From Candidatus Poribacteria bacterium (GTDB lineage: Bacteria; Poribacteria; WGA-4E; WGA-3G), in NCBI GenBank assembly GCA_963422705.1, contig OY730443.1:2910956-2974955 (forward strand): a DNA stretch of 64,000 nt, given 5' to 3'. Positions 36,645 through 63,936 of the stretch are shown here, piece after piece. Under the pieces are notes generated by a model, which made no database searches, was not told where the DNA came from, and saw only the letters and a program-made list of their open reading frames with translations. Both the position numbers and the translations under genes were made by a program. Positions within the stretch are counted from its first letter, which is position 1, and each line of letters opens with the position of its first letter.

Positions 36645-36731
36645 TTTTATAAGCTCCTCATTTCTATCAGTTGTCGGCTAAAAAGTTGATAACGCGTTGT
36701 ATATCTATCCGGCAGGTACCGGTTTTCACTT
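36543..36731 (-). repeat. duplicated 5' region (upstream sequence + signal peptide), copy A
   Basis: Near-identical by eye to 38641-38811, apart from one small indel and a few substitutions (including CAA->TAA). Confidence 0.85.
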
Positions 36732-38741: not shown

Positions 38742-38811
38742 TTCTCTCAGTTGTCGGCTAAAAAGTTGATAACGCGTTGTATATCTATCCGGCAGGTGCC
38801 GGTTTTCACTT
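38641..38811 (-). repeat. duplicated 5' region (upstream sequence + signal peptide), copy B
   Basis: See copy A at 36543-36731. Confidence 0.85.
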
Positions 38812-39222
38812 CCGTTGTGTGATTCAATCCTGAGTCCTGCTGCGAACCCGTGGGTGATACTGGCGTCCCCGACGATGACAAGGCGCCCCATCTTAAGGGT
38901 ATACACCTCATGTTCATCAATGCTGATACAGATAATCCCGTCGGCGGTGCTGAAGTCGCTCATCGCTTGGAACCGCGGTATTGTTTTCAACGTTATCACT
39001 TTTCATGGGTGTTTTTTCCTCCAAATTAGGCATCTTTCCTCAAGGGTATTCCCATAAAATGTAAAATTAGACTGAATCTATCTGGCTTTTGTCATGTCTC
39101 GACAATACGTGCTTTTCTGCCGAGGATGCTGTGAGAGTCATGGCGTTAAAAAGTTGTTTTAAAATAGGAATACCGCTATAATGTTAGGCAATTATACCAC
39201 AATTGCCAAGTGGAAAGCAAAT

Positions 39223-42867: not shown

Positions 42868-43773
42868 CTACGCTGACGAGCTTGATGTCGGGATAGGTTC
42901 AAGAATCGCTCTCAAAAACCCGTTATGTTTTTCTAATAGCGTGTGGGCATCAATTGCATTCATCCCCCGGGCCAGCATGACAATTGCCAGCTTCGCGCTG
43001 CCATCAGCTTCTGCCAAAGCTACTTCGGCGCGTGGGGCATCAACGCCTGTGACAGTTTGAACAATGCGAATGCTCCGTGCGATGAGTTTGGCGTTAGAGG
43101 CATGCACATCCACCATGAGGTTGTTGTATACCTTCCCGATTTTCACCATTGAGATTGTCGTCATCATATTGAGAACCAGTTTTGTGGCAGTGCCGGCTTT
43201 CAATCGGGTTGAGCCTGTCAGGAGTTCAGGCCCGACGATGGGCGTGATGAAATGTTCCACGAATTCCTTCAGTTCTTCTGCCGGTGGTACACAAGCGAGA
43301 AATATGGTTGTCACCCCGATGGTGTGTGCTTCCTCCAAGGCACCTAATACATAACGCGTGCGTCCACTACTTGAAATCCCGAGTAATACGTCTTTTGGCG
43401 TGAGCTGCCGCGCGCGGATTTCTTGTCTACCGCGTTCTGCTTTATCTTCTTCCCCTTCTACTGCCCGTCGTAACGCGGTGTCGCCCCCGGCGATAATTCC
43501 CTGAACCATTTCCGGGGGCGTGCTGAAGGTTGGGGGGCATTCAGAGGCATCGAGTACGCCAAGCCGCCCGCTTGTCCCGGCGCCGACATAAAAGAGGCGT
43601 CCCCCGTGGAAAAAGGCGTTTGTGATAAGATTAACCGCATGTGCAATCGCCGCTGCTTCCGCTTCTACCGCCGCAACGGCGTTCCTGTCTTCGCGGTTAA
43701 AAATCTCGACGATTTCTAACGTTGATTTCACATCGATGTCAGTTGAATGTGGGTTTCGCTGTTCTGTAATCAT
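42868..43773 (-). CDS. murQ: N-acetylmuramic acid 6-phosphate etherase
   Basis: TEQRNP..T..ID and SIS-domain blocks (GAGTSGRLG, SSSGRT). I start at the internal Met at 43773. Confidence 0.9.
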   Translation of the reverse strand: MITEQRNPHSTDIDVKSTLEIVEIFNREDRNAVAAVEAEAAAIAHAVNLITNAFFHGGRLFYVGAGTSGRLGVLDASECPPTFSTPPEMVQGIIAGGDTALRRAVEGEEDKAERGRQEIRARQLTPKDVLLGISSSGRTRYVLGALEEAHTIGVTTIFLACVPPAEELKEFVEHFITPIVGPELLTGSTRLKAGTATKLVLNMMTTISMVKIGKVYNNLMVDVHASNAKLIARSIRIVQTVTGVDAPRAEVALAEADGSAKLAIVMLARGMNAIDAHTLLEKHNGFLRAILEPIPTSSSSA

Positions 43774-43882
43774 TTTTTTTCGATTAAACGATAAGGCGAA
43801 TTTCGTGTGAAATCGCATGTCCCCAGCTCATCAAAGATGTCTGGCCCGTCCATTTTTTCACGAAAGTGATGTCCGTTGCTCG

Positions 43883-44851
43883 TCATTGCAGGCTGCATGC
43901 CCGTACATTTTTATCTATTGCCAATAAGACGGCCCCGACTGCGGGCTCGTGCTTTGGCAAAACACCCGCCGCAGTGGGGGCAATCGTCTTAAGCTTCGTG
44001 TGAAGTTCCTCAAAAAAGAGGGGTTGGTTCACCAGATTTCCGCCACTGAGAACAATCTGAAAATATCCAGTGAATCCTAATCGCTTTATCACCACGGCTG
44101 CGGCGCAAGCGAGTTCATCGACGGCGGCAGTAACAATTTGTTTCGCGGCCCCGTCGCCTGTTTCAGCAGCGAGAAAGACTTCTTTAGCGAGTTCCGCGAG
44201 CGCGTTACGTTCCGCTGCATGCACCCATCGGATTAACGCGTTCGGTTCATTTAATCCCAGGGTGTCGAGAATCCGGCAGGTCAATTCCGTTGGTGTCCCT
44301 CTACCATCCGCTGCACGTGCGACGGCTTTGAGGCCCCGTAAAGCGATGTCATAACCACTGCCTTCATCACCAAGGAGCGGGCCCCATCCACCGGTACGCG
44401 CCTCTTGTCCATGAACGTTTATGCCGTAGACGATGGAACCTGTCCCTGATATGACAATTATCCCTTCCTGTTTCCCGACGCCACTCATCAAAGCAATGTG
44501 GGCATCGTGCGTCAGAATGCGATTTTTCCCGATACTTAGTTCATCACAAATTCTGCCGATGATTTTCCTGTCAGTAGCCCGCCCTAACCCCGCCATTCCC
44601 AAACAGACTTTTGTATGCGCAAGCGACAGTGCTGCACAAGAACCCCTATCTGCCGGTTTACCTGAATTAGAGATACCGGCTTGTTCAAAAAGCCCGACAA
44701 TCAGGGTTTTCAAAACCGTCTTCGTAACTGCTTCGCCGACGACATGGTAATTTGAGGGGCCCACTTCGAGTTGAGCGATGCGTTTGCCGGTTTCTGTGGT
44801 TAGGATGCCAACGGTTTTCGTCCCGCCCCCGTCCACCCCGATGATGTACAT
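43883..44851 (-). CDS. BadF/BadG/BcrA/BcrD-type ATPase (N-acetylglucosamine/MurNAc kinase-like)
   Basis: GVDGGGTKT phosphate-1 motif and GTGS, adjacent to murQ. Confidence 0.8.
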   Translation of the reverse strand: MYIIGVDGGGTKTVGILTTETGKRIAQLEVGPSNYHVVGEAVTKTVLKTLIVGLFEQAGISNSGKPADRGSCAALSLAHTKVCLGMAGLGRATDRKIIGRICDELSIGKNRILTHDAHIALMSGVGKQEGIIVISGTGSIVYGINVHGQEARTGGWGPLLGDEGSGYDIALRGLKAVARAADGRGTPTELTCRILDTLGLNEPNALIRWVHAAERNALAELAKEVFLAAETGDGAAKQIVTAAVDELACAAAVVIKRLGFTGYFQIVLSGGNLVNQPLFFEELHTKLKTIAPTAAGVLPKHEPAVGAVLLAIDKNVRACSLQ

Positions 44852-50472: not shown

Positions 50473-51276
50473 ATGAAATCTATCATGCAATTAACTTTTG
50501 TAGGACTGAGTTTAATTTTCAGCGTTTGCTTCATCATCACGCCCAGCTTCGCAGCACTTGATATGAGCACTGTGACAGGACTTTGGCTCTTTGATGATGG
50601 GAGTGGTGACGTTGCCGTGGATTCATCCGATAGCGCACTTGATGCAGCGGTGATGGGCAGCCCCACGTGGGTAAGCGGAAAATTCGGTTCGGCGTTGGAA
50701 CTTAACGGCGTCGATGCTTACGTTGAAGTCCCCGCACACGTGAATCCAACCGACGCAATCACTATTTCAATGTGGGTGAAAGGGTTGAGCGAAAACTGGC
50801 TGCAAAACGGGTGGTTCATTGAAAAACGGGACGCATATATTATTCACCCGAACGCCGATACCAAGAATGTGTCCTGGCCGATTTGTAACGGTGGCTGTTG
50901 GAATAAGCCCGGCGGCTGGCGCGACGGGGAAGTCGGCCCAGAAAATATCATGGACTGGCATCTCTACACCACCACCTTTGACAGCACGACAGGGGAGTGG
51001 AATATTTACATCGATGGCATCGCGGAAAGCACCATGACTATTGACACGGCGCCGATTGATGCCGACGACGGGGCGCTCTTTATTGGCAGGGATACATGTT
51101 GCGACGGACGCTTCGGAAACGCCATTATTGACGAAGTCGCTATCTTCAATGTTGCCCTCGGCGCCGCGGATATCCAAACGTTGATGGAAAAAGGACTTTC
51201 AGCTACACTCCTGACACCCGTTGAACCCGTCGATAAACTCTCTACGAGATGGGCAGACGTTAAACAACAGTACTAA
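50473..51276 (+). CDS. secreted LamG (concanavalin A-like lectin) domain protein
   Basis: A signal peptide, then LWLFDDGSGD..A.DSS, GKFGSALELNG, WH..T..FD and IDEVAIFN, which are typical LamG_3 blocks. Confidence 0.8.
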   Translation: MKSIMQLTFVGLSLIFSVCFIITPSFAALDMSTVTGLWLFDDGSGDVAVDSSDSALDAAVMGSPTWVSGKFGSALELNGVDAYVEVPAHVNPTDAITISMWVKGLSENWLQNGWFIEKRDAYIIHPNADTKNVSWPICNGGCWNKPGGWRDGEVGPENIMDWHLYTTTFDSTTGEWNIYIDGIAESTMTIDTAPIDADDGALFIGRDTCCDGRFGNAIIDEVAIFNVALGAADIQTLMEKGLSATLLTPVEPVDKLSTRWADVKQQY

Positions 51277-51285
51277 GCTTTTATT

Positions 51286-51311
51286 AAAGGCGGATTCCTA
51301 TATCCGCTTTT
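51286..51311 (+). terminator. rho-independent terminator
   Basis: AAAGGCGGAT-tcctat-ATCCGCTTTT, 10 nt after the LamG stop, ending in a T-run. Confidence 0.6.
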
Positions 51312-51405
51312 AATAAATTAATTAAATTTTTGAGGTTTCCAACCCGAAAATCTCACTAGGCTCGCCCCACGGTTGCTCTAAAAACAAAGGAGATGACATC
51401 ATATC

Positions 51406-52191
51406 ATGACAGCAAAAGCGATTTTCGTGTCCCTAATAGCGGTGCTATTTGTAACCGCACCCCTGATACACGCCCAACTGCCTCTAGATGGCGTTGTCAG
51501 TTACTGGCCATTTGATGAGGGAACAATTGCCGGGAACACCGTTGAGGACGTTCTCGGGGATAACGACGGTGAACTTGATGGCAATTTTAAGAAAGTTGAT
51601 GGAAAAGTCGGAAAAGCGTTGGAATTCGATGGTGAAAATTTCGTCCATATTCCCGGCACGGCCACGCTAGAATTCGCAGGGGCAGAAGAGATGAGTGTTG
51701 CCGCCTGGGTAAACGCCGATAGCGACAGCCCGGTAAAAGGCGTCGTTGCCGGGTGTTGCGGGACTATCGTCGCCCAGCGCGATATGAACGGGTGGGCATT
51801 AAGATTCGATGGAAGAAATGCAGGACAAGAGATGGAATTTATTGTCATGCCCGGGTGGCAGGGTGATGGCGGCTTTGGCGCCGCAGCCTTCAAGAAGGGA
51901 CAGTGGCACCACATAGTCGGCATTGTGAACAAAAAGGAGATGTTACTCTACGTTGATGGACAATTAGAGAAAGAGATGACTTACAACGGTCCCATGGCAA
52001 CGAACGGTTCTGAAACCGAGATTGGCAAGGCGGGGGACGGTGGCTTCGTCGGCATCATTGACGAGGTAATGATTTATAGCAAGGCGCTCTCAGCTGATGA
52101 AGTCGAACAAATCTTTGAAGCAAAGGGGTTACCCGTTCAACCTACCGGTAAACTTACAACCACTTGGGCGAACGTTAAACACCAGGACTAA
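51406..52191 (+). CDS. secreted LamG domain protein
   Basis: A signal peptide, then YWPFDEG, GKVGKALEFDG, WHH..G.. and IDEVMIYS. Confidence 0.8.
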   Translation: MTAKAIFVSLIAVLFVTAPLIHAQLPLDGVVSYWPFDEGTIAGNTVEDVLGDNDGELDGNFKKVDGKVGKALEFDGENFVHIPGTATLEFAGAEEMSVAAWVNADSDSPVKGVVAGCCGTIVAQRDMNGWALRFDGRNAGQEMEFIVMPGWQGDGGFGAAAFKKGQWHHIVGIVNKKEMLLYVDGQLEKEMTYNGPMATNGSETEIGKAGDGGFVGIIDEVMIYSKALSADEVEQIFEAKGLPVQPTGKLTTTWANVKHQD

Positions 52192-52430
52192 GCCGTTTCC
52201 AAATCAGGTTCCCCCCGGGGGGAGAAAATAAAAAATCACACGAAAACGTTGCGTTTGAAAATCCAAATTTCATGTCAATAAAACATGTGTAAGAAGCAGA
52301 ACCATTTCGCACCCCGCTCAGAACGATGCTAAATCCCACGTCGTGTGGGGGCGATTATCTGCTCGCGATATCCCTTGAGAAACTGAAAACGAAACGCCCT
52401 CGCTTGAGCGTTAATACGAAAGGAGCCGTT

Positions 52431-53513
52431 ATGGAACCAGTAAGAGTCGGCGTTATCGGATGTGGCGTGATTGGCAGTAGACATCTCAATATCGCCGCAA
52501 CCGCACCGCATATTGAGCTCGTCGCCGCGGCAGACATCATCCAAGAAAATCGGCAGCGGGCCGTCAAACGATTTCAGCCACCGAAAATGTACGAGAATGA
52601 CGTTGAACTGCTCAATGACGATGACATTGAGGCGGTTGTCCTCGCCTTTCCGACACAATACCGCACCGAGGTGGCACTCCGCGCCTTTGAAAGCGGCAAA
52701 CACGTGCTGATAGAAAAACCGATTGCGATGAACGCCGATGAGGTTGAAAAACTTATCGCGGCCCGGGGTTCCCTGACGTCGGCTTGCTGCTCATCGCGCA
52801 ATCGCTTTTCCAAATCCGCGCAGCTCGCGACGCGGCTGATTACGGCCGGCGAGTTAGGAGAACTTCGTACCGTCTACTGCCGGGCTATCGTTGGGGCGCG
52901 CCAAAAACCGGACACCCCGCGCCCAGCATGGCGGTTAATAAAGGAAATGAACGGCGGAGGAATTCTCGTCAACTGGGGATGCTACGATATCGATTATCTG
53001 CTCGGGATTACCGGATGGGAACTCAAACCGAAAACAGTCTTCGCGCAAACCTGGACTGTACCCCAGCGCTTTGAATCCCACATCGCACCCGGCTCCGATG
53101 CAGAAACACACTACACCGCTCTCATTCGCTGTGACGGCGGAACGGTAATTAGCCTCGAACGGGGAGAGTTTATGACGATGCAGTCGCACGCCGACTGGCA
53201 GATTATCGGAACAAAAGGTTCACTCAAACTCAAAATGGGCGACGGAAAACCGGAAAGCGTCACCCATAACCAAACAACAATGGAAGGCGGTGTCACGGCA
53301 GCACCCCTCCCCGATTTCACAATCGACAACGACGGCAAGAAAATTCAGGGTATCACATCTCAATACGATACCCCGTTGGCAGATTTCGCCGCCGCAATTC
53401 GTGAAAACAGGCAACCCATGACATCCCTGGAACAGGCGCTTGTTGTCCAGAAAATAACCGATGCTATTTACACCTCGGCAGAGAGAGCAACCGCTGTGGA
53501 AATAGGAGGCTAA
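52431..53513 (+). CDS. Gfo/Idh/MocA family oxidoreductase
   Basis: VGVIGCGVIGSRH Rossmann motif and EKP. ATG at 52431 is preceded by AAAGGAG; the track start at 52326 is rejected. Confidence 0.85.
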   Translation: MEPVRVGVIGCGVIGSRHLNIAATAPHIELVAAADIIQENRQRAVKRFQPPKMYENDVELLNDDDIEAVVLAFPTQYRTEVALRAFESGKHVLIEKPIAMNADEVEKLIAARGSLTSACCSSRNRFSKSAQLATRLITAGELGELRTVYCRAIVGARQKPDTPRPAWRLIKEMNGGGILVNWGCYDIDYLLGITGWELKPKTVFAQTWTVPQRFESHIAPGSDAETHYTALIRCDGGTVISLERGEFMTMQSHADWQIIGTKGSLKLKMGDGKPESVTHNQTTMEGGVTAAPLPDFTIDNDGKKIQGITSQYDTPLADFAAAIRENRQPMTSLEQALVVQKITDAIYTSAERATAVEIGG

Positions 53514-53515
53514 AC

Positions 53516-53918
53516 ATGAAGCCCATCGCTCTATTTTTTTTACGGGCTCAATCATAACTCCATATTGTTGTACAGCATCGGTACCAGCATCACGCTCTTT
53601 TCTCTCAGCTATTTGGATGACTTCGACGGTGTCTGGTTGTTCGATGAAGACAACGGAAAAACCGCATCAAACGGAACGGTGGGGCCGGCTTCTGGGCAAT
53701 GAGCGCTAGTATTGATAGAAACACCGGTTTTTTTATCTTTGAAGGCGGCGGGCATCACATTGACGATGGAAAAACCGAGATTGTTAAGAAGGGCTGGCAT
53801 CACACCGTCGCTGTCCGGAGAAATGGCGTTATCTCCCTCTACGTCGACGGTGAAAAGGAGACAGAGCGCAATGTCGGCGCCAATATGGATAATCCCGCAT
53901 CCCTCAAATTCGGTGACA
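53516..53918 (+). pseudogene. third LamG gene, degraded (frameshift in T8 run, internal stop, 3' end deleted)
   Basis: AGGAGG lies 6 nt before ATG 53516 (MKPIALFF..). The frame is lost in a run of 8 T. LamG blocks occur in other frames (LDDFDGVWLFDEDNGK.., GWHHTVAVRRNGVISLYVDGE). Homology ends abruptly at about 53918. Confidence 0.6.
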
Positions 53919-54094
53919 GGGGCTTTCACCGCTGATTTTGGCAGCGGTTCCCCCGCTGATTTCGGCAGCGATTCAACGCGTTTGTCACGCTTGAGCGGTG
54001 CTTTCCGGGACTGTGTCTGTAGCAAGTAGAGGCTCACAGCAACAACTGCCAGGAGCAACAGAGATAAACTGAACCAGATTTTTCGGATAACCAT
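53919..54094 (-). pseudogene. truncated sixth copy (F6') of the array family: first ~59 codons only
   Basis: MVIRKIWFSLSLLLLAVVAVSLYLLQTQSRKAPLKRDKRVESLPKSAGEPLPKSAVKAP, then antisense LamG remnant sequence. The track ORF 53609-54199 is therefore chimeric. Confidence 0.65.
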
Positions 54095-54293
54095 TCGGTG
54101 CTCCTTCCACACGTGTACGTGCACGGTGAAATCACACCAACGCAGCTCCGATGAGTTGCGCGGGGAAATACAACGGATGGGCGTGTTGCCGAAACACAAC
54201 TACGTCCCAAATCGAAAAGATACTTTTACGCCAAGATTCAACGTCACAGACATTTTAGAAAAAAACACATGTTTTCGCACGCATTTTTTGAGA

Positions 54294-54326
54294 CAATACC
54301 AGCAAAAAAATACACACTGTTTTCAT
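54294..54326 (-). pseudogene. decapitated remnant of the M15 peptidase gene start (ATGAAAACAGTGTGTATTTTTTTGCTGGTATTG)
   Basis: It lies 12 nt after the F5 stop. It matches the first codons (MKTVCIFLL..) of the gene at 60746 and is then fused to leader sequence. Confidence 0.65.
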
Positions 54327-54338
54327 GATAAAACACCT

Positions 54339-55259
54339 CTATTTTAGACGCGCAAGCGCACCGCGCGCGGCTATTTCTTCATCGTAATTAGGTTTTTCTT
54401 GCGCCAAAACCGCTTCCCATCTTGGTATCAGGATGTGTTCCACAATGCCGCCGAGCTCGGCACGATGCCGTGCGGCAATCCTGCCTAATACCTCAATGGG
54501 GTAACGTCGTTCGTAGGGCTTCGCGCCCATATCAAGCATATAAGGGATAAGATACGGCACGGCAGCCACCCCCATCTCTGCCAACATATTTATCGGACTC
54601 AGTCCTCCAACAAGCCCTTCACAGAGATAAGTTGCCATAACAACGATAGAACGCGGGTCATTCGTATCAAGACTGCCGAGTAGATCGAATGTTTCTTCCA
54701 TATCGCTGTGTCCTGTCGGGCCTGAAAACCCATCGGGGGACGGCATGAGTTGCGCGATGAGGCTAGGCGTTTCGGGGTTCGGCACACCGCCCCATTCCCA
54801 GATATTGTTGGCGATGTACTCCACCCGGTGCCACGCCGCAAGCACCGCCGGTTCGGTGATACCTTCAGGGATGTCCACTACTGCGGCGGTATACTCGCGC
54901 GAGGCGGACACCGCCGGCGACGCAGCAATATTCTCGTTAGGAACTTCAGGGGGCGCAGGCAGTTCGGCATGCGATTCTTCGACGGGCACTTCTCCACCTT
55001 TGTTAGGAATTTCGGGGGTATCAGACTGTTCGGCGTCCCGTGCGTCGCCGGGCACTTCTCCGCCTTGCGAGGACTCATCAACGGGGGCTTTCACCGCTGA
55101 TTTTGGCAGCCCTTCCCCCGCTGATTTCGGCAGCGATTCAACGCGTTTGTCACGCTTGAGGGATTCTTTGGGAGACTGTGTCTGTAGCAAATAGAGGCTC
55201 ACAGCAACAACTGCCAGGAGCAACAGAGATAAACTGAACCAGATTTTTCGGATAACCAT
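54339..55259 (-). CDS. array family protein F5 (signal-anchor, PE-rich linker, unknown C-terminal domain)
   Basis: 306 aa. GGAAGGAG lies 7 nt before the ATG (MVIRKIWF..). It has a TM helix and is a paralog of F1-F4. Confidence 0.8.
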   Translation of the reverse strand: MVIRKIWFSLSLLLLAVVAVSLYLLQTQSPKESLKRDKRVESLPKSAGEGLPKSAVKAPVDESSQGGEVPGDARDAEQSDTPEIPNKGGEVPVEESHAELPAPPEVPNENIAASPAVSASREYTAAVVDIPEGITEPAVLAAWHRVEYIANNIWEWGGVPNPETPSLIAQLMPSPDGFSGPTGHSDMEETFDLLGSLDTNDPRSIVVMATYLCEGLVGGLSPINMLAEMGVAAVPYLIPYMLDMGAKPYERRYPIEVLGRIAARHRAELGGIVEHILIPRWEAVLAQEKPNYDEEIAARGALARLK

Positions 55260-55458
55260 TCGGCACTCCTTCCACACGTGTACGTGCACGGTGAAATCAC
55301 ACCAACGCAGCTCCGATGAGTTGCGCGAGGAAATACAACGGATGGACGTGTTGCCGAAACACAACTACGTCCCAAATCGAAAAGATACTTTTACGCCAAG
55401 ATTCAACGTCACAGACATGCTAGAAAAAAACACATGTTTTCGCAAGCATTTTTTGATA

Positions 55459-55491
55459 CAATACCAGCAAAAAAATACGCACTGTTTTCAT
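55459..55491 (-). pseudogene. decapitated remnant of the M15 peptidase gene start
   Basis: 12 nt after the F4 stop; same sequence logic as 54294-54326. Confidence 0.65.
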
Positions 55492-55503
55492 GATAAAACA
55501 CCT

Positions 55504-56409
55504 CTATTTTAGACGCGCAAGCGCATCGCGCGCGGATTTTCCTTCATGGTAATCCGGTTCTTCTTGCGCCAAAATCGCTTCCCATCTCGGTATCAGGATG
55601 TGTTCTACAATGCCGCCGAGCTCGGCACGATGCTGTGCGGCAATCTTGCCTAATACGTCAATCGGGTAACGTCGTTCGTAGGGCTTCGCGCCCATATCAA
55701 GCATATAAGGGATAAGATACGGCACGGCAGCCACCCCCATCCTTGCCAACGCATTTTCTGGTCCCAGTCCTCCAACACGCCCTCCACAGTAGTAAGTTGC
55801 CATAACGACGATAGAACGCGGGTCATTCGTATCGAGGCTGCCGAGTCGATTGAATGTTTCTTCCATATCGCTGTGTCCTGTCGGGCCTGAAAACCCATCG
55901 GGGGACGGCATGAGTTGCGCGATGAGGCCAGGCGTTTCGGGGTTGGGTACACCGCCCCATTCCCAGATATTGTTGGCGATGTATTCCACCCGGTGCCACG
56001 CCGCAAGCACCGCCGGTTCGGTGATACCTTCAGGGATGTCCACTACTGCCGGGGTATACTCGCGCGAGGCGGACACCGCCGGCGCAGCAATACCCTCGTT
56101 AGGAACTTCAGGGAGCGCAGACCGCTCGGCATGCGATTCTTCGACGGGCACTTCTCCGCCTTTGTTAGGAATTTCGGGGGTATCAGGCTGTTCCTCGCCG
56201 GGCCGTTCTCCGCCTTGCGAGGGTTCATCAACGGGGGCTCCCCCCGCTGATTTTGGCAGCTCTTCCCCCGCTGATTTCAGCAACGATTCAACGGGGGTGG
56301 CACGCTTGAGGGATTCTTTGGGAGACTGTGTCTGTAGCAAATAGAGGCTCACAGCAACAACTGCCAGGAGCAACAGAGATAAACTGAACCAGGGTTTTCG
56401 GATAACCAT
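55504..56409 (-). CDS. array family protein F4
   Basis: 301 aa, same architecture. The RBS is GGAAGGAG. Confidence 0.8.
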   Translation of the reverse strand: MVIRKPWFSLSLLLLAVVAVSLYLLQTQSPKESLKRATPVESLLKSAGEELPKSAGGAPVDEPSQGGERPGEEQPDTPEIPNKGGEVPVEESHAERSALPEVPNEGIAAPAVSASREYTPAVVDIPEGITEPAVLAAWHRVEYIANNIWEWGGVPNPETPGLIAQLMPSPDGFSGPTGHSDMEETFNRLGSLDTNDPRSIVVMATYYCGGRVGGLGPENALARMGVAAVPYLIPYMLDMGAKPYERRYPIDVLGKIAAQHRAELGGIVEHILIPRWEAILAQEEPDYHEGKSARDALARLK

Positions 56410-56457
56410 TCGGCGCTCCTTCCACACGTGTATGTGCAGGGTGACATCATTTTGAGA

Positions 56458-56491
56458 CAATACCAGCAGAAGAAATACACACTGTTTTCAT
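56458..56491 (-). pseudogene. decapitated remnant of the M15 peptidase gene start
   Basis: 13 nt after the F3 stop (ATGAAAACAGTGTGTATTTCTTCTGCTGGTATTG). Confidence 0.65.
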
Positions 56492-56504
56492 GATAAAAAC
56501 ACCT

Positions 56505-57359
56505 CTATTTTAGACGCGAAAGCGCATCGCGCGCCCGCTTTTCTTCAGAGTAATCCGGTTTTTCTTGCGCCAAAATCGATTCCCATCTCGGTATCAGGAT
56601 GTGTTCCACAATGCCCTCTAAATCGGCGCGATGCCGTGCGGCAATCTTGCCTAATACGATAATCGCTCTACTTCGTAAGTTCGGACTGTGCTCCATATCA
56701 AGCATATAACGGATAAGATACGGCACGGCAGCCACCCCCATCCTTGCCAACGCATTTTCTGGTCCCAGTCCTCCAACACGCCCTCCACAGTAGTAAGTTG
56801 CCATAACGACGATAGAACGCGGGTCATTCGTATCGAGGCTGCCGAGTCGATTGAATGTTTCTTCCATATCGCTGTGTCCTGTCGGGCCTGAAAACCCATC
56901 GGGGGACGGCATGAGTTGCGCGATGAGGCCAGGCGTTGCGGGGTTGGGCACACCGCCCCATGCCCAGATATTGTTGGCGATGTATTCCACCCGGTGCCAC
57001 GCCGCAAGCACCGCCGGTTCAGTGATACCTTCAGGGATGTCCACTACCGCGGGGGTATACTCGCGCGAGGCGGACACACCCGGCCGCGCAGCAATACCTT
57101 CGTTAGGAACTTCGGAGGTATCAGGCGGTTCGGCGTCCCGTGCGTCGACGGGCACTTCTCCACCTTGCGAAGGCTCATCAACGGGGGCTCCCGCCGCTGA
57201 TTTTGGCAGCGGTTTCCCCGCTGATTTCGGCAGCGATTCAACGCGTTTGTCACGCTTGAGGGATTCTTTGGGAGACTGTGTCTGTAGCAAGTAGAGACTC
57301 ACACCAACAACGGCGATGAGCAACAGAGATAAACTGAACCAGGGTTTTCGGATAACCAT
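56505..57359 (-). CDS. array family protein F3
   Basis: 284 aa with the shortest linker. Confidence 0.8.
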   Translation of the reverse strand: MVIRKPWFSLSLLLIAVVGVSLYLLQTQSPKESLKRDKRVESLPKSAGKPLPKSAAGAPVDEPSQGGEVPVDARDAEPPDTSEVPNEGIAARPGVSASREYTPAVVDIPEGITEPAVLAAWHRVEYIANNIWAWGGVPNPATPGLIAQLMPSPDGFSGPTGHSDMEETFNRLGSLDTNDPRSIVVMATYYCGGRVGGLGPENALARMGVAAVPYLIRYMLDMEHSPNLRSRAIIVLGKIAARHRADLEGIVEHILIPRWESILAQEKPDYSEEKRARDALSRLK

Positions 57360-57438
57360 TCGGCGCTCCTTCCACACGTGTACGTGCAGGGTGAAATCAC
57401 ACCAACGGAGCTCCGATGAGTTACGCGGGGATTTGAGA

Positions 57439-57472
57439 CAATACCAACAGAAAAAATACGCACTGTTTTCAT
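57439..57472 (-). pseudogene. decapitated remnant of the M15 peptidase gene start
   Basis: 13 nt after the F2 stop (ATGAAAACAGTGCGTATTTTTTCTGTTGGTATTG). Confidence 0.65.
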
Positions 57473-57485
57473 GATAAAAATACCT

Positions 57486-58382
57486 CTATTTTAGACGCGA
57501 AAGCGCATCGCGCGCGGCTATTTCTTCATCGTAATTAGGTTTTTCTTGCGCCAAAATCGCTTCAAATCTCGGTATCAGGATGTGTTCTACAATCCCGCCT
57601 AGCTCCGCGCGATGCCGTGCGGCAATCCTGCCTAATATGATAATGGGTCTATACCGTAATAGCGGTGTCATCTCCATATCAAGCATATAAGGGATAAGAT
57701 ACGGCACGGCAGGAACCCCCATCTCTACCAACATATCTATCGGACCCATCCCTCCAACAATCCCTTCACAGAGGTAAGTTGCCATAACGACGATAGAACG
57801 CGGGTCATTCGTATCGAGGCTGCCGAGTCGATTGAATGTTTCTTCCATATCGCTGTGTCCTGTCGGGCCTGAAAACCCATTGGGGACGGGCATGAGTTGT
57901 GCGATGAGGCCAGGCGTTGCGGGGTTGGGCACACCGCCCCATGCCCAGATATTGTTGGCGATGTACTCCACCCGGTGCCACGCCGCAAGCACCGCCGGTT
58001 CGGTGATACCTTCAGGGATGTCCACTACCGCGGGGGTATACTCGCGCGAGGCGGACACACCCGGCCGCGCAGCAATACCTTCGTTAGGAACTTCGGAGGT
58101 ATCAGGCGGTTCGGCATGCGATTCTTCGACGGACACTTCTCCACCTTTGTTAGGAACTTCGGGGGTATCAGACTGTTCGGCGTCCCGTGCGTCGACGGGC
58201 ACTTCTCCACCTTGCGAAGGCTCATCAACGGGGGCTTTCACCGCTGATTTCGGCAGCGATTCAACGCGTTTGTCACGCTTGAGCGGTGCTTTCGGGGACT
58301 GTGTCTGTAGCAAGTAGAGGCTCACAGCAACAACTGCCAGGAGCAACAGAGATAAACTGAACCAGATTTTTCGGATAACCAT
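57486..58382 (-). CDS. array family protein F2
   Basis: 298 aa, same architecture. Confidence 0.8.
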   Translation of the reverse strand: MVIRKIWFSLSLLLLAVVAVSLYLLQTQSPKAPLKRDKRVESLPKSAVKAPVDEPSQGGEVPVDARDAEQSDTPEVPNKGGEVSVEESHAEPPDTSEVPNEGIAARPGVSASREYTPAVVDIPEGITEPAVLAAWHRVEYIANNIWAWGGVPNPATPGLIAQLMPVPNGFSGPTGHSDMEETFNRLGSLDTNDPRSIVVMATYLCEGIVGGMGPIDMLVEMGVPAVPYLIPYMLDMEMTPLLRYRPIIILGRIAARHRAELGGIVEHILIPRFEAILAQEKPNYDEEIAARDALSRLK

Positions 58383-58730
58383 TCGGCACTCCTTCCACAC
58401 GTGTACGTGCCGGGTCAAATCACACCAACGCAGCTCGGATAAGTTGCGAGGGGAAATGCAACGGATGGGCGTGTTGCTGAAACACAACTACGTCCCAAGA
58501 GGGTGCTAGTCTCTATTGGTATCGCACACAAACCGAGTTGTACGCTATGATAGAAACTAGCGCTGTTATCGTCTACTTACGGGTGCTCGGTAAAGCATTC
58601 TATAAAAAACACACACTGTTCGGCAAGCATTTTTTCATACAATAACGCCAATAAGACGAACGCCCCCGCAATCAAAAGAACATAGGGTTGAAAAGGGTGA
58701 TGCTGTTTCTCTCATCGTCGAAAAAGCACA

Positions 58731-60746
58731 CTACTCCGGCCAACACCGCAGCCCGTTTCTCTTTCGATACGGCTTATTGCAAATCGGGGTGCTACGGACA
58801 CACCGCTGCCAGGTTTGACGGCATTCGCGCAAACGACACGTACGCACCCTATGTTTATTCTCGGCACTCTCCGATTCAGGATTATACGAATGTCCCGCAG
58901 AACACGTCGCAACAAAACGGTGTTCATGCGGGGTGCAATAATAATAACCACCAGAAGTCTGACACGAATACGGGCCATATTCCATACGACACGATGATAC
59001 CCACGCATGATACGAACGCCGTCGACGATGCGTCGTGTCATGTCCACACGCATATTGACGCACCGCAGACGGTGCCGGTACCTCTGGATAGACATGTTTA
59101 TGGCTCGGACGCGTACAGACATAATACGTCCCGATGAGACACGCCTTGCCATTCTTGCTAGGGCAGAACTGTGCTTCGGTATGTGAACGCCCGGCTTTAC
59201 AACGATAACCCGAATGTGAACCACACGGCAATGTGCCATACGCATGACGAGAAAACTCAGACGACGATGGCGGTTGACACGCATAATAACTATGTGAACC
59301 ACACGAAAAACTCACTGATGCATGAGAAGACGCTTCAGCCTTCTTATGACGATGCCCACACGGACTCGTTACATACGTATCGCTCGGCGCCGGTGCAGCT
59401 GGAAATCTATGAACATGCGGGGTACACGCATAATAGTCACTCCCGTTCGTACACGTATCGCCATTCGAATTCGTCACCGAACACGAGGAGATACGAGAAT
59501 GCTCGCCACTCGCCGTCAAAGGGTGCCCACACCGATGATATTGCCCGGCGGGCGGATGCATCACCCGCGGTTGCAGGGACGACAGCACCTGCACAGCAGT
59601 CGTGGTGCTGTCAGTGCCTTTCGGCGGCTCACACGGCGGAGAATAGACGGTACCAGGAAAGGGCGGCCAACTCCCGCCATCTCCCCGACGCAACGTCCAA
59701 TCCGCATGCGTATGTGTGCTATAGTATTCCCAAGAACCTGTCCATTTCGCACCCGCATCTATGGCACTACGTGCCATCAGTTTAGCATCATCGCTTTTTG
59801 CCTCGTTTTTTCTTACCTGCTCCACCGTGCCATCGCCATCGACATCAAGCGTCTTAATATCTAACGCATCGCCATAGCAGTGGCGACTATGGAAGGAGGC
59901 CTTAGCGGGCGCAGCGACATGAAATCGCTGGTGATACGGGTTGCGATACGCACTGTTGACTTTGAAGGCTTTATCCGAAAAGACGGCTAATCCATTCTTC
60001 TTGCGGTATGCGTTGACTTGCGACAGCCACCCCGACTTTTTGGCTTTCAAGCCGTCATCTATCATATAACGGTAGTGTCCCGTATTCCAGTCATCAACGC
60101 CGTTGCTCGATAGCTCATCCTTAAATTTATCGCGCGCAGGAACAGGCAACTCGGCCCGAGCATCCGGCGGTGTCATGTCCACATATTCCTGACGCAGTAT
60201 GTCAATTTCATCTTGCGTCCACGTTTTCGTCAGCCTCACAGTCTTCAGGTTATCGGCATCCGAACCGTAGTAGCCGATAAACTGGATTTTTACCGCCATC
60301 GGGGTGTTGCCTCTGCCATTTTTACCACGACATGTTTCAACCTTTGTCGTATCCGCGGGACCCTCCAACATCGCCTCCACTGAAAAAGTGGTGTCCGGCG
60401 AAAACGGCGACACATCAGAAACGCGACTCGACTTCACCGCCTTGCGCACCGTAAAACCGTTGTTCATCGTAATCTGAAAATTAAAACGCTCAATCGGGTA
60501 GACATACTGTGAAGGTTGGCGCGCACAATACTTCACATCGACTTTCACACATGCCGTCTTCTCTGAGTTCGTAATAAATGTCGTGAAAACCGCGTTATCT
60601 GAACCGGAACTTTGCCCGATTGTCCAATCTCCCCAACGGACACACGGCGCTGTTGGGGAGACTTCACCAGAAACCAGCGCTGTTCGCACCGACAGACACG
60701 GTACCAATACCAGCAGAAAAAGTAAAAAAATACACACTGTTTTCAT
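58731..60746 (-). CDS. secreted M15-type (hedgehog/DD-peptidase fold) zinc peptidase-like protein with C-terminal Cys/His-rich repeats
   Basis: 671 aa with signal peptide MKTVCIFLLFLLVLVPCLSV. M15 zinc motifs are SRHCYGDALDI (S-x-H-x-x-G-x-A-x-D) and THTHAD (H-x-H). The ATG lies 12 nt after the F1 stop. Confidence 0.8.
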   Translation of the reverse strand: MKTVCIFLLFLLVLVPCLSVRTALVSGEVSPTAPCVRWGDWTIGQSSGSDNAVFTTFITNSEKTACVKVDVKYCARQPSQYVYPIERFNFQITMNNGFTVRKAVKSSRVSDVSPFSPDTTFSVEAMLEGPADTTKVETCRGKNGRGNTPMAVKIQFIGYYGSDADNLKTVRLTKTWTQDEIDILRQEYVDMTPPDARAELPVPARDKFKDELSSNGVDDWNTGHYRYMIDDGLKAKKSGWLSQVNAYRKKNGLAVFSDKAFKVNSAYRNPYHQRFHVAAPAKASFHSRHCYGDALDIKTLDVDGDGTVEQVRKNEAKSDDAKLMARSAIDAGAKWTGSWEYYSTHTHADWTLRRGDGGSWPPFPGTVYSPPCEPPKGTDSTTTAVQVLSSLQPRVMHPPAGQYHRCGHPLTASGEHSRISSCSVTNSNGDTCTNGSDYYACTPHVHRFPAAPAPSDTYVTSPCGHRHKKAEASSHASVSFSCGSHSYYACQPPSSSEFSRHAYGTLPCGSHSGYRCKAGRSHTEAQFCPSKNGKACLIGTYYVCTRPSHKHVYPEVPAPSAVRQYACGHDTTHRRRRSYHAWVSSCRMEYGPYSCQTSGGYYYCTPHEHRFVATCSAGHSYNPESESAENKHRVRTCRLRECRQTWQRCVRSTPICNKPYRKRNGLRCWPE

Positions 60747-60758
60747 GATAAAACACCA

Positions 60759-61667
60759 CTATTTTAGACGCGCAAGCGCATCGCGCGCGGATTTTTCTTC
60801 AAAGTAATCCGGTTTTTCTTGCGCCAAAATCGCTTCAAATCTCGGTATCAGGATGTGTTCTACAATCCCGCCTAGCTCCGCGCGATGCCGTGCGGCAATC
60901 CTGCCTAATACCTCAATAGGGTAACTTCGTTCGTAGGGCTTTGCACCCATATCAAGCATATAAGGGATAAGATACGGCACGGCAGCCACCCCCATCTCTG
61001 CCAACATATTTATCGGACTCAGTCCTCCAACAAGCCCTTCACAGAGATAAGTTGCCATAACAACGATAGAACGCGGGTCATTCGTATCAAGACTGCCGAG
61101 TAGATCGAATGTTTCTTCCATATCGCTGTGTCCTGTCGGGCCTGAAAACCCATCGGGGGACGGCATGAGTTGTGCGACGAGGCCAGGCGTTGCGGGGTTG
61201 GGCACACCGCCCCATGCCCAAATATTGTTGGCGATGTACTCCACCCGGTGCCACGCCGCAAGCACCGCCGGTTCGGTGATACCTTCGGGGATGTCCACCA
61301 CTGCCGGGGTATACTCGCGCGAGGCGGACACCGCCGGCCGCGCAGCAATACCTTCGTTAGGAACTTCGGAGGTATCAGGCGGTTCGTCGACGGGCCCTTC
61401 TCCACCTTTGTTAGGAATTTCGGGGGTATCAGGCGGTTCGGCATCCCGTGCATCGACGGGCACTTCTCCACCTTGCGAAGGCTCATCAACGGGGGCTTTC
61501 ACCGCTGATTTTGGCAGCGGTTCCCCCGCTGATTTCGGCAGCGATTCAACGCGTTTGTCACGCTTGAGGGATTCTTTGGGAGACTGTGTCTGTAGCAAAT
61601 AGAGGCTCACAGCAACAACTGCCAGGAGCAACAGAGATAAACTGAACCAGATTTTTCGGATAACCAT
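60759..61667 (-). CDS. array family protein F1
   Basis: 302 aa; first copy, directly upstream of the intact M15 gene. Confidence 0.8.
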   Translation of the reverse strand: MVIRKIWFSLSLLLLAVVAVSLYLLQTQSPKESLKRDKRVESLPKSAGEPLPKSAVKAPVDEPSQGGEVPVDARDAEPPDTPEIPNKGGEGPVDEPPDTSEVPNEGIAARPAVSASREYTPAVVDIPEGITEPAVLAAWHRVEYIANNIWAWGGVPNPATPGLVAQLMPSPDGFSGPTGHSDMEETFDLLGSLDTNDPRSIVVMATYLCEGLVGGLSPINMLAEMGVAAVPYLIPYMLDMGAKPYERSYPIEVLGRIAARHRAELGGIVEHILIPRFEAILAQEKPDYFEEKSARDALARLK

Positions 61668-61824
61668 TCGGCACTCCTTCCACACGTGTACGTGCACGGT
61701 GAAATCACACCAACGCAGCTCCGATGAGTTGCGCGGGGAAATACAACGGATGGACGTGTTGCCGAAACACAACTACGTCCCAAATCGAAAAGATACTTTT
61801 ACGCCAAGATTCAACGTCACAGAC

Positions 61825-61853
61825 ATGCTAGAAAAAAACACATGTTTTCGCAA
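61825..61853 (-). promoter_or_regulatory. candidate promoter TTGCGA-17-TAGCAT in the conserved array leader
   Basis: Read on the minus strand. The same element recurs in the F5 leader, and as GTGCGA-17-TAAAAT in the F6' leader. It is absent from the shortened F3/F4 leaders. Confidence 0.3.
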
Positions 61854-61874
61854 GCATTTTTTGAGACAATCGAG

Positions 61875-62468
61875 TTATTGGATTCGTAGAGATTCCTTGA
61901 TTGCTTTAATCTCTTTTAATCCTTTGCGGTTGGCTTCACTCGGATAGAAAAAGTATAACAATTCATGCATGACAATCGCCTCGTCTAGAAGGAGCCCCTC
62001 CTCTTCTTGTGCTCTGTGATATAAATCAATGAATTGCTCAATTTCTGGAATCTCCCCGTGTTTTTGTATCAGTCCTTCTCTGATAGCATCTTTATTGGAT
62101 GCTGTTATGGATGGAAATTTCCAGGTAGGGGCGGTTGTACCGGTGTTTATCTCTTCCTCCTTTTGCCACGCTGGTTCCTCATCAGCCGTTAAGGTGGGGG
62201 ACAATGGTGTGTCCTTATCTGTCTCTAGAGACGGTATGTGTGGTTCTGCGGTTGATGTCCGGTTAGGCTGAGGGTTCGGGTGTTCACTGATATCTTCGTC
62301 ATCTTTTATCAGGGCAGCGTCGGGTTTTTCTGGTATTTTCTCCTCTGTTTACTGCTTTACAGGCACTGTGGGGAAACTCTTCTCAAAACGTTTATTATCG
62401 ATATGAATATAGATAGCAGACGCGCAACATAAGAGAATAATAAAGAGGAAAAACAAAATGGCTTTCAT
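61875..62468 (-). pseudogene. hypothetical exported protein gene interrupted by an in-frame TAA
   Basis: AAGGAG precedes ATG 62468 (MKAILFFLFIILLCCASAIYI.., a TM/signal segment). TAA lies at 62349-62351. The same frame stays open to 61875, which is track ORF 61875-62204. Confidence 0.4.
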
Positions 62469-62698: not shown

Positions 62699-62930
62699 GT
62701 GATAGCACCCACACGCGAAAGCGTGGGGCTTCGGTTTCGTAGCAACTGCGGTTTTCTCATAGAGTCAACCGTCTTACTGTCGCTCCACCAGCGGGCGTTT
62801 CCCTGTAGGTTTCTACAGGCATATCGTCAAGTGACGGCTATCCCTGCCCGCAAAATGTTTCGCGCAGCGTTGATGTCTCTATCGTGGTGGGAACCACAGG
62901 CGGGGCATGTCCACTGCCTATCGTCCAATG
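62699..62930 (-). ncRNA. putative TnpB omega-RNA (reRNA) scaffold / IS right end
   Basis: The 3' end of tnpB plus about 125 nt downstream contains hairpins (CCTGTAGAAACCTACAGG, CCACGCTTTCGCGTGTGG). It ends in GGGTGCTATCAC at 62699, mirroring the GTGAGTATCAC termini at 34179 and 35962. The 5' boundary is a guess. Confidence 0.4.
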
Positions 62931-63936
62931 TTAGGGTTTCGTTATGAAAACCGCAATCACGACAAGGTTTGGTTGTAGCTGTCCATTGTCCGACTTTTTT
63001 AAAATGATGCTTATGTTTTTGACACTTATATTCCAATATCTTAACGAACTGGTAGAAGGCGAGGTCCGATACTTTACGCCCCCACAGGCGTTTCATGCCG
63101 TCAAGGTTCAATGTCTCAAGGACAATGATATCAAACTTTTTACAAAGTTCACTTGCCAGTTGCCAGTGAAAATCTTTGCGGTGGTTGCTAATTTTCCGAT
63201 ACAGACGTGCGAGTTGTCTCACACACCGCCACCACCGGTTAGAACCTTTAACTTTACGAGAAAACGCTTTATTGAGAGTCCGAAGTTTGTTCAAGGACTG
63301 TTTCAAAGGTTGTGGGTGTTGGATTTTCTCACCCGTGCTAAGTGTCAAGTACGCGTCTTTCATTCCGAAGTCTGCCCCAACGCTTTTACCTGTTGTCGGC
63401 AGTGGTAAAAAATCTGTGTCATCCGTTATGAGGTAAAGCCAATAGTCGCCGCAATTGTCACGTTTGATCGTGATACGCCTAAGTTTTCCATGCCAGTGGC
63501 GGTGTTTATGAAACGTATAAGGCACTTTATCAAATCGCCACTTCCCTTTATCCCACTGACGAAAACTGAGTGTAATACGGTTGTTAGTGAGTTTAAATCC
63601 AGTTTGTTTCAGCGTGATAGACTTAAACTTATGCTCCGGTTTGATATGGGGGTTACCTCCCCGTTTATTAAAGAACCTTTGATACGCATTATCAATTCGT
63701 TCCAACTCTGCTTGGAGCCCTTGGCTTGGCAACAACTTCCAATGTTGATGTATGGTTCGTTTCAATATGCAGGCATGTTGACACATTGCAGCGTAGTTGG
63801 CATACGGCAAGCCGTCTTTATACCGGTGACGCTGCCACTTATGGAAATAGACATGCACCTGCCACATATCGTCAAGCAGATTTCCAATGCGGATGGTATT
63901 AGATTGTTTCCCAAGCGGGTATTTATAGGTTTTCAT
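62827..63936 (-). CDS. tnpB: IS200/IS605-family TnpB (RNA-guided RuvC nuclease), apparently intact
   Basis: 369 aa. RuvC-I is VGADFGMKD, RuvC-II is IVLETLN, the zinc ribbon is CRDCGF..CPACG and RuvC-III is HHDRDINAARNI. No tnpA is seen within the 64 nt left upstream. Confidence 0.9.
   Translation of the reverse strand: MKTYKYPLGKQSNTIRIGNLLDDMWQVHVYFHKWQRHRYKDGLPYANYAAMCQHACILKRTIHQHWKLLPSQGLQAELERIDNAYQRFFNKRGGNPHIKPEHKFKSITLKQTGFKLTNNRITLSFRQWDKGKWRFDKVPYTFHKHRHWHGKLRRITIKRDNCGDYWLYLITDDTDFLPLPTTGKSVGADFGMKDAYLTLSTGEKIQHPQPLKQSLNKLRTLNKAFSRKVKGSNRWWRCVRQLARLYRKISNHRKDFHWQLASELCKKFDIIVLETLNLDGMKRLWGRKVSDLAFYQFVKILEYKCQKHKHHFKKVGQWTATTKPCRDCGFHNETLTLDDRQWTCPACGSHHDRDINAARNILRAGIAVT

Follow-up and report, generated by a model that had tools for sequence, protein, structure and literature searches.

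We analysed a stretch of 64,000 nucleotides (nt) from a Candidatus Poribacteria bacterium (assembly GCA_963422705.1, contig OY730443.1, positions 2,910,956 to 2,974,955; hereafter the window), which carries six minus-strand copies of a gene, here called F, together with one full-length copy of a second gene, the partner, predicted to encode a secreted peptidase (Table 1). The original prediction, made from the letters of the window alone, had described the six copies; the list of open reading frames (ORFs) confirmed all of their coordinates and lengths, and an alignment confirmed the motifs that it had quoted and their distribution over the copies. Its term tandem array holds for the presence of the copies but not for strict contiguity, since the partner gene (671 amino acids, aa) splits F1 from F2-F6'. 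Neither this gene nor the partner remnants described below had been noticed, and both give the array its functional context. The five intact paralogs are 83-91% identical at the protein level (87-91% to F1, by alignment). The two short stretches in which most of their diversity had been placed are referred to here as patches 1 and 2, and the rest of the protein as the scaffold. The indel-variable linker units were confirmed: linker length differs between the genes since a 66-nt (22-aa) unit and a 24-nt unit each occur either once or twice. Each F copy has its own ribosome-binding site and an intact ORF, and no layout of silent cassettes and an expression site is seen. In F6', homology is confined to 54094-~53919, and the ORF continues to 53609 through unrelated sequence. 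Rfam, promoter and terminator scans of the conserved leaders returned no RNA element and no excess of signals. For a 109-aa ORF upstream of F1 (61875-62204), none of the fetched loci contained a relative, and this ORF does not belong to the cassette.

Table 1. The F array, the partner gene and the adjoining block (positions are those of the window)
Feature	Position	Strand	Description	Basis
F1	60759-61667	-	Intact, 302 aa; directly upstream of the full partner gene, 12-nt gap	ORF and alignment
Partner gene	58731-60746	-	671 aa; starts 12 nt after the F1 stop
Partner domains	residues 1-671 (as listed)		Signal peptide; beta-sandwich ~30-178; predicted M15/LAS zinc peptidase ~180-360; Cys/His-rich repeats 365-671
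F2	57486-58382	-	Intact, 298 aa; patch 2 unique (DMEMTPLLRYRPI); linker units: 24-nt x1, 66-nt x2
Partner 5' stub behind F2	57439-57472	-	ATGAAAACAGTG...GGTATTG, fused to the upstream region of F3
F3	56505-57359	-	Intact, 284 aa; patch 1 in common with F4; 66-nt linker unit x1
Partner 5' stub behind F3	56458-56491	-
F4	55504-56409	-	Intact, 301 aa; clear mosaic: F3-like at nt 496-683, F5/F1-like downstream
Partner 5' stub behind F4	55459-55491	-
F5	54339-55259	-	Intact, 306 aa; patches 1 and 2 both as in F1
Partner 5' stub behind F5	54294-54326	-
F6'	53919-54094	-	Truncated: anchor and proximal linker only
Flanking syntenic block	50473-53935	+	LamG, LamG, GFO/IDH/MocA oxidoreductase, LamG fragment

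We then assessed recombination among the copies, which had been proposed from the incongruent sharing of sequence patches. The codon alignment contains 68 parsimony-informative sites, and the splits that they define contradict one another and form spatial clusters (F3+F4, 18; F2+F3, 14; F4+F5, 13; F1+F5 against the rest, 8; F1+F2 against the rest, 5; F2+F5, 3). In the pairwise homoplasy index (PHI) test, run in our own implementation, none of 10000 permutations reached the observed value (p<1e-4, z=-5.7), the Hudson-Kaplan minimum number of recombination events (Rm) was 13, and 12 of the 30 triplets in maximum chi-squared tests lay at the permutation floor (p~0.001). F4 is identical to F3 at 20/20 discriminating sites between nt 496 and 683, and to F5 at 54 of the 73 remaining sites. 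Most segment sharing occurs between physical neighbours (F2-F3, F3-F4 and F4-F5), as expected from gene conversion or unequal crossing-over within an array. The PHI, Rm and triplet results thus back the proposal. A diversity-generating retroelement was also considered as the source of the variation and is not supported: no reverse-transcriptase domain was found among the ORFs scanned (42-64 kb), and the copies have whole blocks of variation in common, which is what recombination would produce.

The F protein is predicted to consist of an anchor, a tether and a helical domain. An AlphaFold2 model of F1, built with an alignment of database relatives, comprises a transmembrane helix (residues 4-27), a disordered region (28-120) and ten helices that form an all-alpha solenoid (133-301, predicted local distance difference test score >90), in agreement with the signal-anchor and linker read from the sequence. 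A search of 5.8 billion proteins returned 74 relatives, all named ones being hypothetical proteins of Candidatus Poribacteria. Single-sequence searches with F1 against Pfam, NCBIfam, PADLOC and the PDB sequences gave nothing usable; the family is novel, as had been claimed, in that no Pfam, NCBIfam or PADLOC model describes it. When the window copies are taken alone, HEAT_2 is matched by F3 only (E=0.068, 13.9 bits against a gathering score of 27.7). The family profile, when compared with the PDB sequences, matched a synthetic PBS HEAT protein of the alphaRep type (E=9.7e-10) and also importin-alpha. The same profile had many matches in each of ~3000 long multi-repeat proteins, all around profile positions ~150-230; the matches sampled are HEAT_2/HEAT_PBS proteins, and two members of the family, P0075 and P0081, exceed the HEAT_2 gathering score. 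Foldseek, run on full-length F, placed designed armadillo repeat proteins and importin-alpha at the top (probability 0.9-0.97, E~0.05, low TM-scores); it gives a fold class and no close match, since disorder affects a third of the model. Taken together, the profile matches to HEAT proteins and the armadillo matches indicate that the C-terminal domain is a divergent PBS-type HEAT solenoid. This domain had been called unassignable with a weak HEAT-like periodicity; the profile searches bear out the periodicity and make the assignment possible.

The family varies around this architecture. Fused proteins with several F domains occur: P0075 has 4 domains and P0081 has 2. The family alignment also revealed a His-rich tether motif (GHxHxDGTxHxGxH) in most members, in place of which the window copies bear acidic and proline-rich 22-aa repeats (F1 residues ~65-100). 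Proteins that combine the anchor and the His-rich tether with another C-terminal domain, or with none, are found beside F loci (L060, 15454-15891; L048, 7873-8493; L044, 8430-9074; L030, 7879-8484), suggesting that the anchor-tether module is reused. In a library of representative proteins, P0118 (628 aa) carries an F-like HEAT domain C-terminal to an M16 (insulinase-type) peptidase, a further link between the F-type HEAT domain and peptidases.

In the register of the PDB profile match, as aligned by HMMER, patches 1 and 2 correspond to the turn and helix B of two consecutive HEAT repeats, and the variable residues of the window copies fall on repeat positions 18, 19, 22, 23, 26 and 30. These positions are naturally hypervariable, were randomised for alphaRep and form the binding face in alphaRep complexes (PMC3754942). 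The patch columns are also the most variable ones across the whole family, so that the concentration of diversity in two patches, first noticed in the window, extends beyond it. We compared the rates of synonymous (dS) and non-synonymous (dN) divergence, and their ratio omega, between scaffold and patches. Scaffold codons have a dS of ~0.1 and an omega of ~0.42, which marks the copies as genes under purifying selection, not as pseudogenes. In contrast, omega is ~1.3 for patch 1 and ~1-1.3 for the patches overall, and both dS (0.3-2.3) and dN (~1.0-1.3) of patch 2 are far above those of the scaffold. The scaffold is 88-93% identical at the protein level within the window and <=80% identical to anything outside it. 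Patch 2 of F3 (DMEHSPNLRSRAI) finds its nearest match in P0016, from another genome (77% identity, against <=54% to the window paralogs), and patch 1 of F2 is nearest to P0026, P0013 and P0007. With dS and dN both high there, and with their nearest relatives in other species, the patches do not look like recent diversification by point mutation. The simplest reading of these comparisons is that the patches are older than the scaffold, and that old, divergent segments are kept apart on a homogenised background.

The partner protein carries a Sec signal as its only export signal and most likely cleaves peptidoglycan peptides, as may be inferred from its predicted domains. Nine residues are invariant in 20 homologs (Y267, R268, H272, H289, G292, A294, D296, H347 and W350), and the zinc ligands H289, D296 and H347, placed in SxHxxGxAxD...HxD motifs, form an intact H..D..H triad. 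The window partner scores below the Pfam gathering thresholds (M15_4, E=2e-4, 22.3 against 25 bits; M15_3, 17.3 against 23.2 bits); Peptidase_M15_3 matches 11 of the 20 family members (best E=3.7e-7), and one member weakly matches the MepK model of NCBIfam. The partner profile found no match among the PDB sequences. Foldseek, run on the full AlphaFold2 model of the partner, in which the beta-sandwich is predicted with confidence, related the N-terminal domain to generic beta-sandwiches (PmoB, T-cell receptor); the peptidase domain and the tail had no specific match. The N-terminal domain also resembles the 'colicin Z C-terminal domain' of NCBIfam in 5/20 members (E=0.007), and colicin Z degrades peptidoglycan (PMC6668396); the score falls far short of the threshold (16.6 against 50 bits), and we take the resemblance as no more than a lead. 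Some 10 kb from the cassette, a MurQ-like SIS-domain protein and a BadF/BadG-family ATPase are encoded side by side (42868-44851, minus strand), which suggests peptidoglycan or amino-sugar recycling.

To place the window in its phylum, we scanned one genome per GTDB species. The scan returned 54 F loci, all in metagenome-assembled genomes (MAGs) of Candidatus Poribacteria and up to 4 per genome; in these genomes and in the protein search, the F family was found only in this phylum. The partner has 33 database relatives, located on the same contigs as relatives of F. When all fetched loci were mapped, an F gene was found directly upstream of a partner gene in 40 unique adjacencies, with gaps of mostly 4-30 nt. 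The arrangements elsewhere include F-F-partner, F-F-F-partner, F-partner-F-partner and runs of several F genes, and comparable arrays exist in independent complete Poribacteria chromosomes. Intact F genes stand beside truncated partner remnants at no fewer than seven other loci (L007, L008, L010, L014, L030, L047 and L048) as well as in the window. The distances between F proteins correlate with those between their partners (r~0.8), and a partial Mantel test, which is liberal, detected an additional signal linking patches and partners (r 0.23-0.28, p~5e-4). A third conserved gene follows the partner in L060 (11773-12246 and 18705-18843) and also in L028, L029, L033, L041, L046 and L047; its ~157-aa, membrane-anchored product contains IIDNNIFRPLGW, and the gene is absent from the window. 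In the literature, we found no description of the F family or of the cassette, no work on polymorphic toxins in Poribacteria, and none that connects the conversion of immunity genes to peptidoglycan effectors.

The partner remnants inform on how the array arose. Behind the stop codon of each of F2, F3, F4 and F5 stands the start of a partner gene, with its ribosome-binding site and its first ~11 codons, and every stub is joined to the upstream region of an F gene at one identical point, within an ATTG microhomology. The identity of this junction in all stubs implies that a unit of F plus stub was formed once and then amplified. Duplication in simple tandem of such a unit predicts extra copies upstream of the full partner gene, whereas they lie downstream of it. 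We compared the locus with that of a single-copy relative, L001, in which F, partner, LamG, LamG, oxidoreductase and LamG follow each other on one strand. In the window, the LamG block is inverted relative to the F and partner genes (tblastx synteny), and the break of F6' (~53919-53935) lies where a 3'-truncated LamG pseudogene (53664-53924, plus strand; LamG Pfam E=1.7e-6) abuts it. The junction between F6' and this LamG remnant is a rearrangement (inversion) breakpoint, which suggests that a further rearrangement lies behind the downstream placement of the copies. The remnant belongs to the third LamG gene of the block (53513-53935, plus strand), a pseudogene that retains the middle part only (equivalent to L001 14778-15038), with a shortened 5' part, and that ends at the F6' junction. 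About 1.2 kb beyond F1 lies a gene for a TnpB-like protein (369 aa, 62827-63936, minus strand; OrfB_IS605 and a Cas12f1-like TNB domain, E~1e-20); it has no second copy in the window and may be relevant to rearrangements at the locus.

We tentatively favour the view, to which we give slightly less than an even chance, that the array is a polyimmunity-like bank of periplasmic binders for M15 cell-wall peptidases. That F may be a periplasmic M15 binder follows from the tight operon, the co-divergence of F and partner, the periplasmic topology and the placement of the variability on the binding face. The Poribacteria-specific cassette would pair F, anchored in the inner membrane, with a Sec-secreted zinc peptidase of the M15/LAS type; F would hold a periplasmic PBS-type HEAT domain on a ~100-aa acidic, proline-rich and disordered tether, and would bind M15 peptidases specifically, with its specificity in the helix-B face of the repeats that carry patches 1 and 2. 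The unit of F and the first ~11 partner codons would have been formed once, by an illegitimate junction at the ATTG microhomology, and then amplified; the scaffold would continue to be homogenised by gene conversion and unequal crossing-over, for the most part among neighbours, while patch differences would be retained, presumably by selection. F1 would neutralise the cell's own peptidase, and the orphan copies F2-F5 would neutralise variant peptidases from competing Poribacteria strains in the sponge. Immunity proteins against cell-wall toxins that act in the periplasm, such as the colicin M immunity protein, typically combine an N-terminal anchor with a periplasmic domain, and the predicted topology of F matches this plan. 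The hallmarks of polyimmunity are also present, namely a tandem array of paralogs, orphan copies and fused multi-domain F proteins. In a more specific form, this would be a phylum-specific system of interbacterial toxins and immunity proteins, with Sec-exported M15 peptidases set against membrane-tethered HEAT proteins, and with a recombining library that reshuffles two old specificity cassettes against the variants of competitors in the sponge; this form we regard as possible but doubtful.

Several observations weigh against a bank of immunity proteins. No type V, type VI or type VII secretion system, RHS, PAAR or similar delivery module was found in the window or in the Pfam-annotated neighbourhoods of four loci; the partner has a Sec signal only, so that any export beyond the periplasm of the producer is hypothetical. 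The partner adjoins F in all 40 unique pairs, its toxin role being putative, yet F is upstream, not downstream, in 40/40, while immunity genes usually follow the toxin gene. Within the partner family, it is the C-terminal Cys/His repeats that vary and the peptidase domain that is conserved, which is not the classic pattern of a variable toxin tip. The statistical support has its own bounds, since an omega of ~1 in the patches is no proof of positive selection and the partial Mantel test becomes liberal where phylogenetic structure is common to the sequences compared. Neither family is recognised in the window by curated models alone, F remaining below the HEAT_2 gathering score (13.9 against 27.7 bits) and the partner below that of M15_4 (22.3 against 25 bits). 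Finally, toxicity, binding and protection are all inferred.

The main rival is a regulatory role, in which F would be an adaptor or scaffold for the peptidoglycan-remodelling M15 peptidases of the cell itself, recruiting, activating or restraining them, with the paralogs tuning the choice of substrate or partner. The tight operon with F in first position agrees with it, as does the Sec-only export, which makes the periplasm of the producer the default destination; a ~100-aa tether could reach the wall layer, the peptidoglycan-recycling genes (MurQ-like SIS, BadF/BadG ATPase) lie 10 kb away, and no toxin-delivery genes are seen nearby. However, housekeeping pairs of a hydrolase and its adaptor are not normally found as 3-4 divergent cassettes per genome with tandem arrays of the adaptor, intact F genes repeatedly outlive a decayed partner gene, old and divergent patches are kept despite strong concerted evolution, and fused multi-F proteins exist. 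We therefore favour immunity over an adaptor, given the multiple divergent cassettes per genome, the F arrays, the fused proteins and the survival of F beside decayed partners, and judge the adaptor to be rather unlikely.

The same data bear on three further explanations. F could be a variable 'eukaryote-like' repeat protein that faces the sponge host, for example in evasion of recognition, the array then providing antigenic or ligand variation by recombination. Eukaryote-like repeat proteins abound in Poribacteria, which live as symbionts of sponges, the window also encodes a leucine-rich repeat (LRR) protein with a dockerin, mosaic variation is typical of contingency loci, and HEAT repeats are reportedly counted among the eukaryote-like proteins in sponge and coral MAG surveys. 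Yet F has an inner-membrane anchor and neither an outer-membrane nor a secretion signal, which puts its HEAT domain in the periplasm and not on the cell surface; the strict pairing with a peptidase gene would be unexplained, and the intact ORF and ribosome-binding site of every copy do not form a silent-cassette system, so that we consider a host-facing role improbable. Even less probable, in our judgement, is a part in zinc handling, with a His-rich linker that delivers or buffers metal for a Zn-dependent, Cys/His-rich partner. The consensus linker of the family (GHxHxDGTxHxGxH) and the many Cys/His repeats of the partner, a zinc enzyme, speak for it, but the window copies have swapped the His-rich motif for acidic and proline repeats and are nevertheless intact and under purifying selection, and the hypervariable HEAT patches and the arrays are left unexplained. 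An assembly artefact, or neutral amplification without function, is the explanation to which we give the least credence. In its favour, 1-kb repeats are open to mis-assembly, and F6' is truncated; collapse in assembly is nevertheless unlikely, since the copies diverge by 9-17% and can be told apart by their junctions and by the lengths of their intergenic regions. Moreover, the contig has a reported length of 4.0 Mb, all five full-length ORFs remain intact and show a scaffold omega of ~0.42, and comparable arrays are present in independent complete chromosomes of the phylum.

Elsewhere in the window, the LRR protein with its C-terminal dockerin (757 aa, 36726-38999, minus strand) has an LRR region encoded by highly similar internal DNA repeats that are offset by multiples of 66 nt and are 80-94% identical; this is a second, independent repeat-protein locus, which might vary in length. 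A secreted Met-zincin of 860 aa (11033-13615, plus strand) carries DUF4953 with DUF5117/5118, and an ORF of 919 aa (20385-23144, minus strand) has no Pfam match at E<=1e-5.

Poribacteria are uncultured and abundant sponge symbionts, in which strain competition and coexistence are essentially unknown, and a conserved, multi-copy cassette of peptidase and binder would provide a concrete starting point for tests of conflict between strains, or of how the cell wall is controlled, in this phylum. The array is also a clean natural case in which concerted evolution would homogenise the scaffold of a repeat protein while selection preserves old variants of its binding surface; the preserved variants occupy exactly the positions randomised by engineers in alphaRep. 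If the binders do form a library, the array would be a natural analogue of that engineered scaffold. If the immunity reading fails, the cassette is still an uncharacterised envelope module, made of a HEAT anchor and a LAS peptidase and confined to one phylum.

Helical-repeat proteins are known to assist peptidoglycan hydrolases: in NlpI-MepS-Prc and LbcA-CtpA, lipoproteins with a tetratricopeptide alpha-solenoid, encoded by single-copy housekeeping genes, act as adaptors. The F cassette likewise pairs a helical-repeat protein of the envelope with a cell-wall peptidase, but F genes form polymorphic arrays and those of NlpI and LbcA do not. Periplasmic immunity against cell-wall toxins is provided by the colicin M immunity protein Cmi and by the Tsi, Tai and Rap proteins of type VI secretion systems, and the rap genes of Serratia are clustered. 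F would similarly be a small, membrane-attached and periplasm-facing protein encoded beside a peptidoglycan-directed enzyme, with clustered paralogs possible in both cases; it has no relationship to these proteins in sequence or fold, and no delivery system is recognised here. The partner, like M15/LAS peptidases such as MepK (Peptidase_M15_3), retains the SxHxxGxAxD...H.D zinc signature, whereas its additional N-terminal beta-sandwich and its long Cys/His-rich repeat tail set it apart, as does a divergence that leaves it below curated cut-offs. With alphaRep and the PBS HEAT proteins (PMC3754942), F shares the 31-residue register DPRAV..L...L.D.D..VR..A..ALG.IG and identical variable helix-B positions; unlike alphaRep, it is natural, membrane-anchored and periplasmic by prediction, and has ~2 canonical repeats, the rest of the 190-aa domain being divergent with insertions in the turns. 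The closest parallel is with the Imm-HEAT immunity proteins and the tandem 'polyimmunity loci' of polymorphic toxin systems (Zhang et al. 2012, PMC3482391). Both comprise tandem, paralogous genes for small binders beside the gene of a secreted enzyme, with HEAT as the binding module, and in both there are orphan copies, fused multi-domain versions and several divergent cassettes per genome. In contrast to those loci, the putative toxin is here an M15 peptidase that has a Sec signal only and lacks any recognised delivery module, the order of the genes is binder first, the binder, a putative immunity protein, is tethered to the membrane by a long disordered linker, and the family occurs in Poribacteria alone. 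Each kind of element is known by itself, be it the HEAT binder, the LAS peptidase, the paralog array shaped by gene conversion or the polyimmunity locus; what is new is that the pairing is restricted to one phylum, that the binder is tethered, and that old patches persist while the scaffold is homogenised.

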